Positions 2,024-7,903 of a DNA stretch of 64,000 nt are shown piece by piece. The notes under the pieces are model-generated. The model ran no database searches. It was given only the letters and a program-made list of their open reading frames with translations, and was not told the DNA's origin. The DNA lies in assembly GCA_019115225.1 (NCBI GenBank), contig DXEA01000114.1:16165-80164 (forward strand), read 5' to 3'. The translations under genes and the position numbers were made by a program. Source of the stretch: Candidatus Evtepia faecigallinarum. GTDB lineage: Bacteria > Bacillota > Clostridia > Oscillospirales > Oscillospiraceae. How positions within the stretch are numbered: position 1 is the first letter of the stretch; each line of letters begins with the position of its first letter.

Positions 2024-2254
2024 TCACCCGTCCTCGCGCAGCCGCTGGATCAGGTCCCAGAGCCTGGCGGCAGAGTTGAAGTTTTCCGGAACGATCTCTA
2101 CCGTGGGGATGATGATGTCAAAGACCTCTTCCACCTCGGCCACCAGGGCCAGGATGTCTAAGGAGTCGAGGAAATGGCCGTCGATGAGGGTGTCGCAGTG
2201 GTCATAGTCCACGTTGGGCTGGATCTCGCGCAAAATCTCCAAAAGCTGTTCCAT
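2024..2254 (-). CDS. Acyl/D-alanyl carrier protein (DltC-like), 76 aa
   Basis: Small acidic protein with a ..GHFLDSLDILALV.. phosphopantetheine-attachment Ser motif. It sits between the decarboxylase and the MBOAT gene. Confidence 0.8.
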   Translation of the reverse strand: MEQLLEILREIQPNVDYDHCDTLIDGHFLDSLDILALVAEVEEVFDIIIPTVEIVPENFNSAARLWDLIQRLREDG

Positions 2255-2255
2255 G

Positions 2256-3455
2256 TCAGATGTCCTCCTTGGTGTCGTAGTGGGGGGTGTTGAGAAAATG
2301 GATCTGCCGGGCCTGGCGCAGGGTGCGGATCTGTCCGTCCTGCTGGCGCAGCAGGATTTGGGGCAAATCCCGGCTGAGGAAGAGGGCGATGCCCTCGGTC
2401 ATGCAGTAGGCCCCGGCGCGGTCAAAGACCAGCACATCCCCCAGGCGCAGGTCGGGCAGGGGGAGCTGCTTGACCAGCAGGTCGTTGATGGTACACAGGG
2501 CCCCGCAGATGTTCCACTTCTGCAGGGGCTCGCCCTGGCGCAGGGGGAAGGCGGTGACCGGGGGGCGGTGCATGGCCAGGCTCTGGCCGTAATAGACCAG
2601 CTGGTGGATGCCGCCGTCCACGATGGCGTAGTTCTGGCCGCCGTTGGTCTTGCGATCCACCACCTTGGTGACGTAGCGGCCGCAGGTGGCGGCGATGCTC
2701 CGGCCCAGCTCCAGCACGATCTTGCCCCGGTAGTTCATCTGGGCAAACAAGGCGGCGGCCTGGCGGAGGAACGCCTCCTCCTGCTGGGGGTCCGGCCGGT
2801 CAAAGTAGTCGATGGGGAAGCCGGGGCCGAACTCCAGCTCCCCGACGGGGGCGCCCAGGCGCTGGTGGAGATGGGCAAGAAATTCGTCCAGCATACCAAG
2901 CTCCCGGGCCAACCGTTTGAGGGAGGTCTTTTGGGTGCCGGAGAAATACTGGACCCCGCGAATCTCCAAAACCTCACTGTGCCGGTGCAGGGCGAACAGG
3001 TTTTCCAACTCATCCTTTTCCAGGCCGAACTGGTTGCCGCTGGTCAGCCGCAGCAGCAGGGAGAGCTTTTTGCCGGTAACCTGGGCGGCGTGGTGGAGAA
3101 GCTCAAACTGCTGCAAGGACTCCACCGTAAAGATCATCTCCTCCCCCTGCCGGGCCACCAGGTCCTGCAGCCAGGCGGGGTCCTTGTAGACCCCGGAAAT
3201 GACGAACTGACCGGGGGGCAGGTCCAGCTGGTCGCAGATGGCATACTCGCCGGGGGAGCAGAGCTCCAGCCGGGCCACCAGGGGGCTGACCTCCCGGGCC
3301 AGGAAGGGGTTGGCCTTCAGGGCATAGCACAGCTCCACCTGCCCGGGCAGCAGGGTTTGGAGAAACCGGACGCGCTGCTGGAGCTGCCCGGCATCGAAGA
3401 GATAAAAGGGGGTCTGGTGGGTCTGTAGCAGAGAGAGCACTTCCTGTTCAAACAC
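2256..3455 (-). CDS. PLP-dependent decarboxylase, Orn/DAP/Arg decarboxylase family (fold type III), 399 aa
   Basis: N-terminus TPFYLFD...ELCYALKANP (PLP-Lys motif). Also has ..YFSGTQ.. and the C-terminal ..DRAGAYCMTEG.. typical of group IV decarboxylases. It overlaps the adenylase stop by 8 nt. Confidence 0.8.
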   Translation of the reverse strand: MFEQEVLSLLQTHQTPFYLFDAGQLQQRVRFLQTLLPGQVELCYALKANPFLAREVSPLVARLELCSPGEYAICDQLDLPPGQFVISGVYKDPAWLQDLVARQGEEMIFTVESLQQFELLHHAAQVTGKKLSLLLRLTSGNQFGLEKDELENLFALHRHSEVLEIRGVQYFSGTQKTSLKRLARELGMLDEFLAHLHQRLGAPVGELEFGPGFPIDYFDRPDPQQEEAFLRQAAALFAQMNYRGKIVLELGRSIAATCGRYVTKVVDRKTNGGQNYAIVDGGIHQLVYYGQSLAMHRPPVTAFPLRQGEPLQKWNICGALCTINDLLVKQLPLPDLRLGDVLVFDRAGAYCMTEGIALFLSRDLPQILLRQQDGQIRTLRQARQIHFLNTPHYDTKEDI

Positions 3456-4962
3456 GTTCCCATCCTCCTTCCAGCAGCTTGCGGCGGTCGGTCTTTCCGT
3501 TTTTGGTCAGGGGGAAGTCGGGGACCTGGGCCAAGGTGTTGGGGACCATGAAGGCGGGCAGCTGCTCCCGCAGCTGGCTGCGCAGGGCAGTGGCGTCCAT
3601 CTGGCCGATGTAGTAGCCCCGGATCTTCTGCTTTTCCCCATCAAAGATGCAGCAGCACCGCTCCACCTGGGGAAAGGCGGCGATGGCCCGCTCGATCTCT
3701 TCCAGCTCCACCCGGTGGCCCAGGTGCTTGATCTGAAAGTCCTTCCGGCCCCGGTAGAAAAACTCCCCGTCGCGGGAGAGCCGGCCCAGGTCGCCGGTGC
3801 GGTAGATCCGCTGGGGACACTGGGGGGTGCGGGGGTCGGGGAGGAAGGCGGCGGCGGTCTGCTCCGGGGCGTTGTAGTAGCCCAGGGCCAGGGCGGTGCC
3901 CCGGACGCAGATCTCGCCCACCACGTCGGGCTCCCGGATCTCCTGGTCGGCCTCGTCCAGCAGGAAGACCTCCTCGTTGGGGAAGGGCTGGCCGATGGGC
4001 AGGCCCTGGCTGTAGTCCCGCTGCCGGTCCAGGATGTGATAGGTGCAGTTGCAGGTGATCTCCGTGGGGCCGTAGAGGTTGACGAACTGGGCCTGGGGGA
4101 GCTTGTCCATCCACTGGCGCAGATGCTTCAGGGGCATGACCTCACCGCTGAAGAGGACCTTGCGCACCGTCTCCGGCGTGCGGTAGTCCAGGCCGTGGAG
4201 GGTGCTGATGAGGCACAGGGCGGACACGGCCCAGATCATGGTGGTGATCTCCTGCTGGCAGAGGTAGTCCACCAGCTCCTTGGGGCGGGAGAAGAGGCGG
4301 CGGGGCACGATGACCAGGGTGGCCCCGGTTTTGAGACAGGAGTAGATGTCCTTGACGGAGACATCGAAATCAAAGGGGGCCTGGTTGGCCAGCTTATCCT
4401 GGGCCGTCAGGGCGAAAATGTCGGTAAAGGGGTCGATGAAGTCCAGCACCGAGCGGTGGCTGATGACCACCCCCTTGGGTACCCCCGTGGAGCCGGAGGT
4501 GAAGTTGGCGTACAGGGGATCGGTGTCGATCATGCCGGCCCGGATCTCTGCCAGCCGGTCCTCCTCGGGGGAGACGCTGCACAGCTTTTCCACCAACAGG
4601 ATGGCGTGCTGGGGGAAAAGCTGCTCCATGGTCTTTTGGTGGGCCCGGTCGGTGATGACGCAGCGGGCCCCCAGGACGGACTGGATCTGCCTCAGCCGGG
4701 TTTCAGGAAGCTCTGTATTGAAGGAGACATAAAACCCGCCGGCATATACCGTGCCCAAAAACGCGGCCAGGGCGGCCCCGCTCTGCTCCAGGTAGACCGC
4801 CACCGGCTCCCGGGGGGCGATGAAGTAAGACAGCGCCGTGCCGATGCTGCGGGCCAGCTGTTCCAGCTGTTCAAAGCGATAGCTTCTGTGCTCGTCCACG
4901 CAGGCCAGCTTGTCCGGCATGGCAGCGGCGGTTTTCTCCAGATATTGGAGAACGTTATTCAT
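3448..4962 (-). CDS. Amino-acid adenylation enzyme / D-alanine--carrier protein ligase-like (DltA-like), 504 aa
   Basis: ANL superfamily motifs FTSGSTGVPKGV, YGPTE, YRTGDL and the C-terminal ..LTKNGKTDRRKL. The size and single-domain layout match DltA. Confidence 0.85.
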   Translation of the reverse strand: MNNVLQYLEKTAAAMPDKLACVDEHRSYRFEQLEQLARSIGTALSYFIAPREPVAVYLEQSGAALAAFLGTVYAGGFYVSFNTELPETRLRQIQSVLGARCVITDRAHQKTMEQLFPQHAILLVEKLCSVSPEEDRLAEIRAGMIDTDPLYANFTSGSTGVPKGVVISHRSVLDFIDPFTDIFALTAQDKLANQAPFDFDVSVKDIYSCLKTGATLVIVPRRLFSRPKELVDYLCQQEITTMIWAVSALCLISTLHGLDYRTPETVRKVLFSGEVMPLKHLRQWMDKLPQAQFVNLYGPTEITCNCTYHILDRQRDYSQGLPIGQPFPNEEVFLLDEADQEIREPDVVGEICVRGTALALGYYNAPEQTAAAFLPDPRTPQCPQRIYRTGDLGRLSRDGEFFYRGRKDFQIKHLGHRVELEEIERAIAAFPQVERCCCIFDGEKQKIRGYYIGQMDATALRSQLREQLPAFMVPNTLAQVPDFPLTKNGKTDRRKLLEGGWERV

Positions 4963-5008
4963 GGGGAATCACCTGCTTTCTCAGATGGTGCATTGGTCTG
5001 CTGAACTC

Positions 5009-5062
5009 AGGATAGCAGGCACAGCTTAAGGGTTTGCGAATGAATATCTTAACGTTTCTTAA
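5009..5062 (-). promoter_or_regulatory. Tripartite direct-repeat operator plus -10 element upstream of the dlt-like operon
   Basis: The minus strand reads TTAAGAA-acg-TTAAGAT-N16-TTAAGCT-N8-TATCCT. The hexamer ends 46 nt upstream of the ATG at 4962. The spacing is identical to the plus-strand copy at 5270-5323. Confidence 0.6.
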
Positions 5063-5269
5063 AGTCATTTCCCGGCGGGAGAGGGGGGAGAGAACTTTCT
5101 GGATTTTTAAGAATTTCTTCACCGTTTTTTTCGCAAAACCTTATGAAAAAATAGAAACTCTCTGCTAAACTGACTACCAACCACCGTGGTTCTTATCCTG
5201 TTCCTTATCTAAAAAAGGCCGTCCAAACCGTGCCGGCGGGCGCGTTTTTTTGCCAGAAAACTTGGGCAA

Positions 5270-5323
5270 TTAAGAATCGTTAAGAAGTTCCGTCCGGAAG
5301 CATTAAGAAATGGCGGCTAAAAT
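5270..5323 (+). promoter_or_regulatory. Tripartite direct-repeat operator plus -10 element upstream of the lipoprotein-RR-HK operon
   Basis: The plus strand reads TTAAGAA-tcg-TTAAGAA-N16-TTAAGAA-N8-TAAAAT. The first two repeats have 10-bp phasing, typical of OmpR/PhoB-type response regulator sites. Confidence 0.6.
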
Positions 5324-5397
5324 GACGGCCAACAGGAAATCCCCCCCGTCACGGGCGAGGAACCTGAAATCAAACCAAAGGAAAGGAAGTACGAACC

Positions 5398-5781
5398 ATG
5401 ATGCGTACCACTGGAAAGATGAAAACGAAGAACGTGCTGGCCCTGGCCATGGCACTGCTGCTCTCCCTGTCCCTGCTGGCCGGCTGCGGCAGCCAGAAGG
5501 GCAGTGAGGATCAGAAGGACACCCAGCAGACCCAGACCCAGGAAGCTGAGCAGAAGGACAGCAAGCAGCAGGAGAGCAAGGACCAGAAGAAGGACACCGG
5601 CAAGGAGTCCAAGGACGCGAAAGACACCCAGGACGACACCAAAGACAGCAAAGACACCAAGGACACTGAGGACAGCAAGGACACCGCCAAAACCGACACC
5701 GGCAAGGCCAAGGAGAGCAGCAAGAGCACCACTGCCAAGCAGAGCACCTCCGGCAGCCAGCGTACCGGCAAGAAAAGCTGA
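5398..5781 (+). CDS. Lipoprotein with a low-complexity K/D/T/S/Q-rich mature part, 127 aa
   Basis: Signal peptide with lipobox LLAGC (..ALLLSLSLLAGCGSQ..). The remainder is repetitive KDT/KDS/QKD. RBS aaaggaaagga lies upstream. Confidence 0.7.
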   Translation: MMRTTGKMKTKNVLALAMALLLSLSLLAGCGSQKGSEDQKDTQQTQTQEAEQKDSKQQESKDQKKDTGKESKDAKDTQDDTKDSKDTKDTEDSKDTAKTDTGKAKESSKSTTAKQSTSGSQRTGKKS

Positions 5782-5819
5782 GAGCATTGCGCTGGCACCC
5801 TGCGCACACCGCGCATCCA

Positions 5820-5855
5820 GGGGCCCCTCCCGCACAAGCCTGCGGGAGGGCCCCC
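5820..5855 (+). terminator. GC-rich intra-operon hairpin (possible partial terminator or mRNA stabiliser) between the lipoprotein gene and the RR gene
   Basis: Stem ggggcccctcccgca / tgcgggagggcccc of about 13-14 bp with a 6-nt loop. The U-tract is weak (cattct). Confidence 0.4.
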
Positions 5856-5880
5856 ATTCTGACGAAACGGAGAGGCCACC

Positions 5881-6606
5881 ATGAATGTGCAGACCATTCT
5901 CATCGTGGACGATGACACCGAGATCCGGGAAGGACTCCGCATCCTTCTCAGCGGCGAAAACTATACGATCCTGGAGGCGGCTGACGGGAAGCAGGCCCTG
6001 GACCAGATGTCGGACACCATCGACCTGGTCATTCTGGACATCATGATGCCCGGCATGTCGGGGCTGCATGTCTGCGAAGAGATCCGCAAGCAGTGGGCCG
6101 TGCCCATCCTCTTCCTCACTGCCAAGGCCCAGGAGTCGGACAAGCTGGTGGGACTCATCGCCGGCGGGGACGACTATTTGCCAAAACCCTTTTCCTATGC
6201 CGAGCTCATGGGCCGGGTCAAGGCCCTGCTGCGCCGTTATTGCGTCTACCGGGGCAAGGCCCAGACCGGGATGCTGAGTCAGGACAACATCCTCACCACC
6301 CGGGGCCTGAAGCTCAGCCTGGATTACAACCAGGTGTGGGTGAGGGGACAGGAGGTGGAGCTGACAGAGCTGGAGTACAAGATCCTGCGCCTGCTCATGC
6401 AGAACCCCCAGCGGGTCTTTTCCACCCAGAATATCTATGAGAGCGTTTGGGGCGAGCCCTATTTTTACATTTCCAACGGCACCGTCATGGTGCACATCCG
6501 CAAGCTGCGGGTGAAGATCGAGGAGGACCCGCAGAACCCCCGCTATCTGAAAACCGTATGGGGAAAGGGGTATCGTTTTGAAGTCAGTGCAGACCAAGAG
6601 CCGTAA
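5881..6606 (+). CDS. OmpR/PhoB-family response regulator, 241 aa
   Basis: Receiver domain (ILIVDDD..., LVILDIMMPGMSG, ..FLTAK.., DDYLPKPF) plus a winged-helix C-terminus (..LTELEYKILRLLM.., ..YLKTVWGKGYRF). Confidence 0.9.
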   Translation: MNVQTILIVDDDTEIREGLRILLSGENYTILEAADGKQALDQMSDTIDLVILDIMMPGMSGLHVCEEIRKQWAVPILFLTAKAQESDKLVGLIAGGDDYLPKPFSYAELMGRVKALLRRYCVYRGKAQTGMLSQDNILTTRGLKLSLDYNQVWVRGQEVELTELEYKILRLLMQNPQRVFSTQNIYESVWGEPYFYISNGTVMVHIRKLRVKIEEDPQNPRYLKTVWGKGYRFEVSADQEP

Positions 6607-7903
6607 GCCCAGCAGTCTCACCGCCCAGTTTGCGGGGCTGCTGTGTCTGGCCAGCCTGGCCGGTGTGGTGCTCTTTTTCCTCCTGCGCACCGGTGGGGAT
6701 ACCCTGATCCGCAGCTATTTTTACCACTCCAATTTCCAGCAGCGCTATGTGGAGCACAAAATCGAATCCCTCCAGCAGTATGTGATAGAGAACGACCTGA
6801 CCGCCCAGGATGCCGACGGGCTGAACCAGTGGGTCAGAAAGACCCCCCTTACCCTCATGGCGGTCTACCGGGACAACATCCTGCTCTATGCCTCCTCCGC
6901 GCCGGAGCAGGCCGTTGCTGGGGAGAGTGAGGCGGAGACCCCGTATTATGATTGGGTGTCCTACTATACCGTCACCTTTGCCGACGGGGAGGCAGAGGTG
7001 GTCCTGTATACCGGCAGCACCTATCTGTGGTTTACCTACCTGACCATCGTCAGCCTGCTGCTGTCCTTCCTGTTCTTCCTGGCCATCATCACCGTCAAGA
7101 GCAGGGGGCTGGTGCGGTACATCGGCCAGCTCAGCGATCAGATCCAGGCCATGGAGGGGGGCGACCTGGACCAGGCCATCCTCATCCAGGGCAACAACGA
7201 GCTCTCCCGGCTGGCCCAGGGCCTGGACGCCATGCGCCAGTCCTTCAAGGAGCAGACGGAGCGGGAAAAGGCCATTTTCCGGGCCAACCAGACCATGATC
7301 ACCCAGATGTCCCACGACCTGCGCACCCCCCTGACCGCCTTGCAGATCTATACCGATATCCTCCGCTACCGGAAGTTTGCCGACCGGGGCCAGAGCGATG
7401 AGTATCTGAACAAAATCGACACCAAGGTGGCCCAGATCAAGCAGCTGTCGGAAAACATTTTTGAATACTCCTTAGTCTCCGGCGTCCAGCAGATCGACTT
7501 AGAGCCTCCCCGCCCCGTGCGGGACGTGTTCCACGATACCCTGTCGGAGATGGTGGCCTATCTGGACCAGCACGGCTTTACCTTTGCCCTGGACCTGGAC
7601 TGGCCCCACCGGCAGATCGCCGTCTATCCCCAATACATCAAGCGGCTCATGGACAACGTCATCTCCAACATCACCAAATACGCCCAGCCGGCTGTGCCTG
7701 TGCGCATTGGGGTGAAGGACGAGGGGGAGACCGTCTGCCTGTCCTTTGCCAACGCCATCCGGCCGGACAGCTCCCAGCAGGACAGCAACCGCATCGGCCT
7801 GTCCAACATGCGGGCCATGATGGGCCGCATGGAAGGGGAGCTGCAGGTGTGCAGTGAAGATGGGACCTTTTCGGTCACCCTCTGTTTTCCTGCACGGTGC
7901 TGA
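6578..7903 (+). CDS. Sensor histidine kinase (2 TM, HAMP, HisKA, HATPase), 441 aa
   Basis: TTG start 7 nt after gggaaagggg; overlaps the RR gene by 29 nt. H-box MSHDLRTPLTAL. There are two hydrophobic segments flanking a loop of about 110 aa. C-terminal ATPase motifs (..NITKYA.., ..GLSNMRAMM..). Confidence 0.85.
   Translation: MKSVQTKSRKPSSLTAQFAGLLCLASLAGVVLFFLLRTGGDTLIRSYFYHSNFQQRYVEHKIESLQQYVIENDLTAQDADGLNQWVRKTPLTLMAVYRDNILLYASSAPEQAVAGESEAETPYYDWVSYYTVTFADGEAEVVLYTGSTYLWFTYLTIVSLLLSFLFFLAIITVKSRGLVRYIGQLSDQIQAMEGGDLDQAILIQGNNELSRLAQGLDAMRQSFKEQTEREKAIFRANQTMITQMSHDLRTPLTALQIYTDILRYRKFADRGQSDEYLNKIDTKVAQIKQLSENIFEYSLVSGVQQIDLEPPRPVRDVFHDTLSEMVAYLDQHGFTFALDLDWPHRQIAVYPQYIKRLMDNVISNITKYAQPAVPVRIGVKDEGETVCLSFANAIRPDSSQQDSNRIGLSNMRAMMGRMEGELQVCSEDGTFSVTLCFPARC

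Follow-up and report, generated by a model that had tools for sequence, protein, structure and literature searches.

Regulators of the OmpR/PhoB type bind direct repeats with a phasing of about 10-11 bp, near or over the -35 region. Repeats of this kind, built on the heptamer TTAAGAA, are found in a 435-bp intergenic region within a 64-kb stretch of DNA from Candidatus Evtepia faecigallinarum (the window, the whole stretch that was analysed; loci outside it are numbered L001 and so on), where each of two divergent operons is preceded by three heptamers, here called R1, R2 and R3, and by a predicted -10 hexamer. One operon codes for a lipoprotein, a response regulator (RR) and a histidine kinase (HK), the other for a set of enzymes starting with a DltA-like adenylation enzyme. 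The boxes are probably the operators of the adjacent RR (5881-6606), a VanR-like member of the OmpR family, which would activate both operons.

Comparison with Known Systems

Among described systems, VanR leaves footprints on directly repeated 12-bp boxes, (T/C)CGTANGAAA(T/A)T, located upstream of a poor -35, and such boxes are present at both the regulatory and the resistance promoters, with autoregulation in VanA and VanB (PMC4405338). The present operators resemble those of VanR (PR and PH of Tn1546, PYG of vanG) by the OmpR-family nature of the RR, the two or three direct-repeat boxes per promoter and the poor -35. In terms of sequence, the VanR core GTAnGAAAwT and the extended box consensus found here, TTAAGAAaTT, agree from TA-GAAAwT on, with a T in place of the G and no conserved CG before it. 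However, VanR has all its boxes upstream of the -35, while R3 sits here in the spacer between -35 and -10, and the targets are envelope acylation genes instead of D-Ala-D-Lac or D-Ser ligase (vanHAX-type) genes.

A second point of comparison is CiaR, which activates transcription from NTTAAG-N5-TTTAAG placed 10 nt from the -10 (PMC3091779) and whose regulon includes dltABCD and its own operon (PMC3091779; PMC8317062). The TTAAG core is shared, the TTAAG of R3 stands at that exact 10-nt distance from the -10, and CiaR promoters are activator dependent. Nevertheless, CiaR uses a single 11-bp-phased pair abutting the -10, while the strong pair found here is 10-bp phased and lies 33 nt further upstream. 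R3 is the one strong half-site in the CiaR position; the position 11 bp upstream of R3 is degenerate, and R1-R2 ends 31 nt from the -10. The recognition helices also differ, with VVEVYVSKVRKKL in CiaR and TVMVHIRKLRVKI in the window RR (NGTVMVHIRKLRVKI at that place).

In Clostridioides difficile, RR_1586 was found by one-hybrid and electrophoretic mobility-shift assay (EMSA) to bind direct repeats of DRTTAAGNWWW, present twice (PMC6222199). This is likewise a clostridial OmpR-family RR acting on TTAAG direct repeats. It differs from the window RR in using 11-bp phasing exclusively, in having been reported mainly as a repressor, in its putative targets (ion transport and sporulation) and in that no tripartite layout has been described for it.

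The core regions recognised by Bacillus subtilis PhoP contain four TT(A/T/C)ACA-like repeats between about -60 and -20, which bind two dimers and replace the -35. Four head-to-tail half-sites with a periodicity of about 11 bp over the same -60 to -20 interval are also what the present promoters appear to offer, but the half-site sequence is different, Oscillospiraceae have a degenerate version of the third half-site, and 12-13 bp separate the two pairs.

Finally, two-component systems control envelope charge in several bacteria, through GraRS/VirRS with dlt and mprF in Firmicutes and through PmrAB with arn and eptA in enterobacteria. GraR and VirR are BceR-like and use other boxes; PmrA reads YTTAAK-type direct repeats at the arn and ept promoters. 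An EMSA oligonucleotide from the arn promoter, named the QseB-binding site in that study, contains CTTAAGgttaaGTTAAT (PMC10729948). The present locus would share with these systems the scheme of an autoregulated two-component system driving operons for positive-charge envelope modification, but differs from them by a decarboxylase of the carrier-protein type and by a regulon that, in relatives, also comprises DedA-Pss-Psd-PAP2, MacAB-like and YfhO/GtrA/GT2 genes. Taken together, these comparisons place the sites in the class of OmpR-family tandem-repeat operators, although they conform neither to VanR, nor to CiaR, nor to a canonical dlt system.

Layout of the Proposed Operators in the Intergenic Region

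The elements of the two putative operators are as follows.

5270-5276, plus strand: R1 of the lipoprotein-RR-HK promoter, TTAAGAA, invariant in 5 lineages and 11 strains
5280-5286, plus strand: R2, TTAAGAA, 10-bp phased with R1 across the spacer tcg, predicted at about -50 to -44
5293-5299, plus strand: weak third half-site, TCCGGAA, uncertain, 10 bp upstream of R3, TCCGGAAgcaTTAAGAA with 3 mismatches
5303-5309, plus strand: R3, TTAAGAA, 16 nt (N16) after R2, in the -35/-10 spacer, with its TTAAG 10 nt upstream of the -10
5318-5323, plus strand: predicted -10 hexamer TAAAAT, 8 nt (N8) after R3; TAAAAT or TAGAAT at N8 in 5 lineages
5062-5056, minus strand: R1 of the dltA-like operon promoter, TTAAGAA, kept in the lineages with 95% and 87% identical RR
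5052-5046, minus strand: R2, TTAAGAT, after the spacer acg
5040-5034, minus strand: weak third half-site, TTCGCAA, uncertain; L107 has TTCGGAA in this position
5029-5023, minus strand: R3, TTAAGCT, N16 after R2; TTAAGCT, TTAAGCT and TTAAGCA in 3 lineages
5014-5009, minus strand: predicted -10 hexamer TATCCT, N8 after R3; TATCCT, TATGCT and TATGAT in 3 lineages

A preliminary description of this DNA had reported the same tripartite arrangement, with spacings of 3, 16 and 8 nt, at 5270-5323 on the plus strand and 5062-5009 on the minus strand, as well as a palindrome, TTAAGAAtTTCTT, at 5107-5119; all these coordinates and spacings are correct for both copies, and the palindrome is present. In an independent repeat-finder run, the two copies come out as a 50-nt inverted repeat, 70% complementary. 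The N3, N16 and N8 sequences of the two copies are nevertheless unrelated, only the boxes and their distances being common to both, so that they are not the product of a recent inverted duplication. From start to start, R1 and R2 are 10 bp apart in both window copies and 10-11 bp apart in relatives, so that the sites present the head-to-tail direct repeats of 6-7 bp, phased by about 10-11 bp, that are typical of OmpR/PhoB-type operators.

Such a clustering exceeds by far what would be expected by chance. With at most one mismatch allowed, TTAAGAANNNTTAAGAW has two matches in 64 kb, which are exactly the two operators, compared to an expected number of 0.00 (100 shuffles). The exact heptamer TTAAGAA occurs seven times in the window for 1.5 expected, and five of these seven occurrences fall within 5056-5309. 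Since the intergenic region is richer in AT than the window (46% and 62% GC, respectively), a stricter null was obtained by shuffling the 435-bp spacer alone: its five exact TTAAGAA compare with a mean of 0.18, and none of 20,000 shuffles reached five.

Conservation within the Species and between Lineages

Within the species, 10 metagenomic contigs carrying an identical regulator were compared, whose intergenic regions are 96% identical to that of the window. While 40 of the 381 other spacer positions are polymorphic in this set, none of the 54 box and -10 positions is (Fisher p=0.004), and the substitutions between strains fall exactly between the boxes, as illustrated by the R1-R2 spacer changing from tcg to aca.

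Between lineages, orthologous promoters were reached by exact-protein look-ups of RR homologues at 80-96% identity, and the cultured Pseudoflavonifractor sp. 524-17 has an RR at 81% identity; the best relative in an earlier scan of genome contigs was at 62% identity. For the lipoprotein promoter, five lineages whose RR are 100, 95, 85, 82 and 80% identical to that of the window could be aligned as follows.

RR 100% and 95%: TTAAGAA-tcg-TTAAGAA, N16 gttccgtccggaagca, TTAAGAA, atggcggc, TAAAAT
RR 85%: TTAAGAA-tcg-TTAAGAA, N16 gttcacaggtaaagga, TTAAGAA, atggggag, TAAAAT
RR 82%: TTAAGAA-tcg-TTAAGGA, N16 cttcgcaggtaaagga, TTAAGAA, ttgagcgg, TAGAAT
RR 80%: TTAAGAA-tca-TTAAGAA, N16 ttttagtcctaaagga, TTAAGAA, cttaccaa, TAGAAT

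At this promoter, 25 of the 27 box and -10 positions are invariant, compared to 16 of the 83 others (Fisher p=7e-12), and the N3, N16 and N8 lengths are retained while their sequences are altered. In the same line, the dltA-like promoter of three lineages (the window and those with 95% and 87% identical RR) has 22 of 27 invariant box and -10 positions against 23 of 83 others (p=1e-6), the version of the 87% lineage being TTAAGAA-aaa-TTAAGGA-N16-TTAAGCA-N8-TATGAT; as to the weak third half-site of this promoter, TTC-TTC-CA are among the positions invariant in the three lineages. In the 87% lineage, an extra gene has been inserted between the two operons, and an operator is retained at each promoter.

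A further short element of the lipoprotein promoter, A[A/T]CAGG, is conserved in five lineages near the predicted start, 8-13 nt past the -10 (5331-5336 in the window, and the aligned positions of L175, L171, L180 and L173).

The Same Grammar near Related Regulators

The tripartite site was also sought elsewhere. A scan for exact TTAAG-N5-TTAAG near regulator genes, over the first 80 loci, returned almost nothing; relatives have N3 or N4 spacings and degenerate first repeats, so that a mismatch-tolerant scan was needed. With such tolerance, the fetched loci, 2.03 Mb in total, yielded 25 distinct tripartite sites, and the reversed-sequence controls yielded none. In two regulator-anchored scans, the site was present in 16 of the 47 loci whose RR is at least 49% identical to that of the window, compared to none of the 113 loci (1.35 Mb) anchored on OmpR-type regulators below 49% (p=4e-10). 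In the RR-anchored loci, the site lies right after the kinase gene or at most 0.8 kb upstream, with one exception at 4 kb upstream.

In gut Oscillospiraceae whose RR is 67-70% identical, the same layout occurs at the promoter right downstream of the kinase gene, for example as TTAAGCA-agtc-TTAAGAA-N16-TTAAGAA-N8-TATACT before a MacAB-like exporter (membrane-fusion, ABC and FtsX proteins). The own promoter of the regulator has in this group TTAAGAT-ttc-CTAAGAA followed, after 31 nt (16+7+8), by TATACT; it is devoid of R3 and has TGGAAA as a -35-like element, correctly spaced by 17 bp. In L116 and L118, two copies stand back to back, with YfhO on one side and PIG-L-RR-HK on the other. Other operons preceded by the boxes are PAP2-DedA-Pss-Psd (L006), DedA-Pss-Psd-PAP2 (L171, L173) and GtrA with a family-2 glycosyltransferase (L155).

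The regulator and its putative target are also linked by gene order: in L001, L002, L107, L108 and L109 (Lachnospiraceae or metagenome loci), the five enzyme genes and RR-HK form a single co-directional operon. In L002, L107 and L108, the three whose upstream sequence was examined, boxes precede the first gene of this fused operon. In the Lachnospiraceae versions, four head-to-tail half-sites start at 0, 10, 21 and 32 and are followed by 8 nt and GATAAT, as in TTTAGAT-ttg-TTAAGAA-N4-TTCGGAA-N4-TTAAGGT-N8-GATAAT. Their well-formed middle repeat, TTCGGAA or TTAAGGA, occupies the place of the weak half-sites of the window.

Two further two-component systems were noticed along the way. The first is a paralogous system divergent from DedA-Pss-Psd-PAP2 (L171 3400-3600, L173 2760-3010, L180 3285-3580), whose RR in L171 is 58% identical to that of the window and is also present in L173 and L180. 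The operator of this DedA-Pss-Psd-PAP2 operon, TTCAGAT-ttc-TTAAGAT-N16-TTAAGGA-N8-TATACT, is near-identical to those of the window; the two systems may therefore cross-talk at the DNA level. The second is a true VanR/VanS-like pair located on the same contig past the left edge of the window, after a 300-nt gap following the enzyme operon (L182 12867-14685). Its RR, of 232 aa, shares 42% identity with the window RR and has no TTAAGAA cluster upstream.

Promoter Anatomy and Proposed Mechanism

When the -10 hexamers are set at -12 to -7, R1-R2 is predicted to span about -60 to -44, the weak site about -37 to -31 and R3 -27 to -21. The hexamer at N8 from R3 is conserved as TAnnnT, and relative to the starts predicted in this way R1-R2 lies just upstream, and R3 just downstream, of the -35 position. 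This -35 is itself essentially lacking: promoters with R3 match TTGACA at 1.3 of 6 positions on average, compared to 2.6 of 6 in the R1-R2 promoters without R3 (TGGAAA), a difference with p=0.008 on a small number of promoters. Inside N16, only a weak preference for C/G at positions 14-16 is seen.

These data lead to the following model. Each promoter would consist of four head-to-tail half-sites, namely the strong R1 and R2, a degenerate third one, and R3. Upon phosphorylation of the RR by the kinase (6578-7903), two RR dimers would bind in tandem, one on R1-R2 upstream of the missing -35, the other on R3 and its degenerate partner in the -35/-10 spacer, and this promoter-proximal dimer would stand in for the absent -35 and recruit sigma-A RNA polymerase. 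Activation of the lipoprotein-RR-HK operon would amount to positive autoregulation, and would go together with activation of the divergent operon for the adenylation enzyme, the pyridoxal phosphate (PLP) decarboxylase, the carrier, the MBOAT protein and the SGNH-like protein, this operon presumably serving to link an amino-acyl group to an envelope polymer through an ester bond. Since the boxes of the autoregulatory copy are perfect and its -10 is the better one (TAAAAT), while the copy of the enzyme operon is weaker (TTAAGAT, TTAAGCT, TATCCT), the two promoters probably respond at different levels of phosphorylated regulator, in a graded manner. The layout of the boxes, their excess over chance, their conservation and their occurrence with this regulator clade are thus shown by the sequences, while we infer binding of the RR, activation rather than repression, the transcription starts and the signal sensed.

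The proposal of the preliminary description, that the adjacent RR autoregulates and co-controls the divergent operon, is thereby upheld by computational evidence, namely the conservation of the boxes, their co-occurrence with the regulator clade, the fused operons, the resemblance to VanR boxes and the fact that VanR is the best-scoring family of the RR. Two of its details need to be refined: the N16 spacing is accurate but better read as holding a degenerate fourth half-site, as four are explicit in Lachnospiraceae, and R3 is predicted to sit in the -35/-10 spacer and not at the -35 itself.

Several points weigh against this model. The -10 assignments are predictions, and one site of the 87% lineage (L177) has a 15-nt gap instead of N16. 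In Oscillospiraceae the third half-site is weak and shows no clear conservation, and N16 holds little information, so that a single protomer may bind R3, or R3 may have a different role. Repression, too, can be exerted from a site between -35 and -10. Two further OmpR-type RRs with similar recognition helices are encoded in or near such loci (the VanR-like one of L182 and the 58% paralog of L171, L173 and L180). Finally, a conserved central block of the intergenic region (5101-5215) is outside the model.

Alternative Explanations

The alternative that survives best, while still unlikely, is that the adjacent RR binds the boxes with a net repressive or dual effect, R3 occluding RNA polymerase and induction occurring by release or by a phosphorylation-driven rearrangement. 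The location of R3 in the promoter spacer would suit such a switch, and RR_1586, which binds TTAAG direct repeats, reportedly repressed its own promoter as well as reporters until phosphorylated (PMC6222199). In addition, a sigma-70-like element, TTGCCA-N16-AAGAAT (5250-5277, plus strand), has its -10 overlapping R1; however, its TTGCCA is unconserved in relatives (L175, L171), and it is therefore probably a fortuitous promoter. Moreover, an essentially absent -35 (1.3/6) is characteristic of activator-dependent promoters, the repeat from which CiaR activates stands at the exact distance of R3, and the -35 is better in the promoters of the family without R3, as would follow if R3 took the place of this element.

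Less probable still is that the operators are real but mainly bound by another OmpR-family RR, either the VanR-like one past the left edge or the paralog, the adjacent RR having other targets. In this respect, the VanR/VanS-like pair of L182 (12867-14685) follows the enzyme operon on the same contig, the RR of this pair has a VanR-like recognition region, NNTVMAHIARLREKM, and the boxes are similar to those of VanR, while the 58% paralog (L171; also L173 and L180) adjoins promoters with near-identical boxes. Nevertheless, the site accompanies orthologues of the adjacent RR in loci that show no VanR-like pair close by (L091-L106, L116, L155) and precedes the own operon of this RR in five lineages, and the second RR has no TTAAGAA cluster upstream. 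Cross-talk with a second regulator is possible without displacing the assignment of the boxes to the adjacent RR.

That the repeats would be non-functional, as a chance cluster in an AT-rich spacer (46% GC in a window of 62%) or the relic of an old inverted duplication, is very improbable given that none of 20,000 spacer shuffles reaches the observed count, that the boxes are invariant while the spacers diverge across lineages and strains, that the same grammar is found at unrelated promoters in other families, and that the two copies have nothing in common in the sequence of their spacers.

Central Block and Other Intergenic Features

Between the two operators lies the following feature.

5101-5215, no strand assigned: central conserved block of 115 bp, kept between the window and the 95-96% lineage while both flanks diverged

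The block holds the palindrome TTAAGAAtTTCTT and weaker minus-strand half-site pairs at 5121-5104 and 5207-5190. Besides, TTCGCAAAACCTTA (5130-5143, 14 nt) is 93% complementary to 5027-5040, inside the dltA-side operator. The block could contain auxiliary RR sites that serve the weaker promoter, another promoter or the remains of a third operator.

A structured or small RNA between the operators is unsupported, as Rfam gave no match over 4500-6000 at a permissive threshold and no stable fold was detected, with z-scores near 0 (-0.04 for 5160-5255 on the plus strand and +0.21 for 5100-5255 on the minus strand). A DltX-like open reading frame at 4955-5122, running over the minus-strand boxes, was rejected, since it covers an unconserved stretch (5076-5100) and lacks a codon-like pattern. 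In the middle of the divergent promoter region, a terminator-like hairpin is found at 5229-5251 on the plus strand (CGTGCC-GGCG-GGCGCG followed by seven T, with an A-run before it). The hairpin stretch (5229-5244) is not conserved in the 95% lineage, which weighs against a conserved bidirectional terminator.

The Regulator Operon

On the plus side, three genes follow the operator.

5398-5781, plus strand: lipoprotein of 127 aa, first gene of the operon, with an LAGC lipobox and a low-complexity body rich in Lys, Asp, Thr and Gln
5881-6606, plus strand: OmpR-family RR, VanR-like, with receiver and winged helix, the proposed binder of the boxes
6578-7903, plus strand: HK, with HAMP, HisKA and HATPase_c

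The RR matches PF00072 (2.6e-29) and PF00486 (4.1e-27), and its best NCBIfam model is the VanR family NF033117, reached with 232.1 bits, below the cut-off of 350. A lipoprotein with a highly charged body, of low complexity or repetitive, is always the first gene of the regulator operon (window 5398-5781; L173 6238-6927; L180 5948-6856), with KKDSG or TKKDA repeats in the relatives, and related systems in L002, L004 and L110 have similar Lys-rich proteins next to them. This lipoprotein could be an accessory of the sensor or a protective surface protein.

The Enzyme Operon and Its Possible Chemistry

On the minus side, the putative target operon comprises five genes.

3448-4962, minus strand: amino-acid adenylation enzyme, DltA-like and similar to the A domains of nonribosomal peptide synthetases (NRPS), first gene
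2256-3455, minus strand: fold-type III PLP decarboxylase, diaminopimelate-decarboxylase-like and BtrK-like, second gene
2024-2254, minus strand: small carrier protein of 76 aa
421-2022, minus strand: MBOAT membrane acyltransferase, DltB-like, 533 aa
1-409, minus strand: 5' part of a membrane-anchored GDSE-motif (SGNH-like) protein of 316 aa, last gene, extending past the window and found at full length in L182

The preliminary description had called this operon dlt-like. It is indeed dlt-like in its logic, but it is not a dlt operon: the DltA, DltB and DltC equivalog models are all missed (295 for a cut-off of 559.85 with TIGR01734, 164 for 375 with TIGR04091 and 24.7 for 68 with NF003464), and dltABCD lacks an equivalent of the PLP decarboxylase placed after the first gene. 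With 401 bits against NRPS A domains and 216 bits against solved DltA, the adenylation enzyme is closer to the former. As for the decarboxylase, the solved structures most similar to it are those of diaminopimelate decarboxylases and BtrK (2j66, 7ru7; E about 7e-26), the latter being an L-glutamyl-[acyl-carrier-protein] decarboxylase which acts on glutamate tethered to the carrier protein BtrI. A BtrK-like decarboxylase next to an NRPS-nearer adenylation enzyme suggests a modification other than D-alanylation, in which a decarboxylated, carrier-tethered amino acid would be moved through the MBOAT and SGNH-like proteins in place of D-alanine. Nor does the operon end in a recognised DltD: for the 316-aa GDSE protein of its last gene, no Pfam family is given in the precomputed gene tables, and a scan of its L002 counterpart gave no Pfam match. 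A literature search for a decarboxylase-containing dlt-like operon returned nothing relevant.

Significance

An autoregulated OmpR-type activator working on tandem direct repeats is textbook biology, and the value of the present locus lies in annotation and in its unusual enzyme operon rather than in a new principle. For an uncharacterised VanR-related clade that is common in human-gut Clostridia, it provides a testable grammar, R1-N3/4-R2-(weak half-site)-R3-N8-(-10), which allows the regulon to be read from sequence alone. The targets found in this way in relatives point to envelope functions (the dlt-like/decarboxylase operon, DedA-Pss-Psd-PAP2, MacAB-like exporters and YfhO/GtrA/GT2 glycosylation), from which antimicrobial peptides or envelope stress can be suggested as what these bacteria, whose genetics are hard to study, respond to.

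As a more speculative extension, which we put forward tentatively, the tripartite box may mark an envelope-remodelling regulon of this two-component clade in gut Clostridia (Oscillospiraceae, Lachnospiraceae). Its flagship target would then be a new polymer modification, in which an amino diacid is loaded on the carrier, decarboxylated while tethered by the BtrK-like enzyme (giving, for example, a gamma-aminobutyryl- or beta-alanyl-type thioester) and exported by the MBOAT and SGNH-like pair, the charged lipoprotein taking part in sensing or protection.

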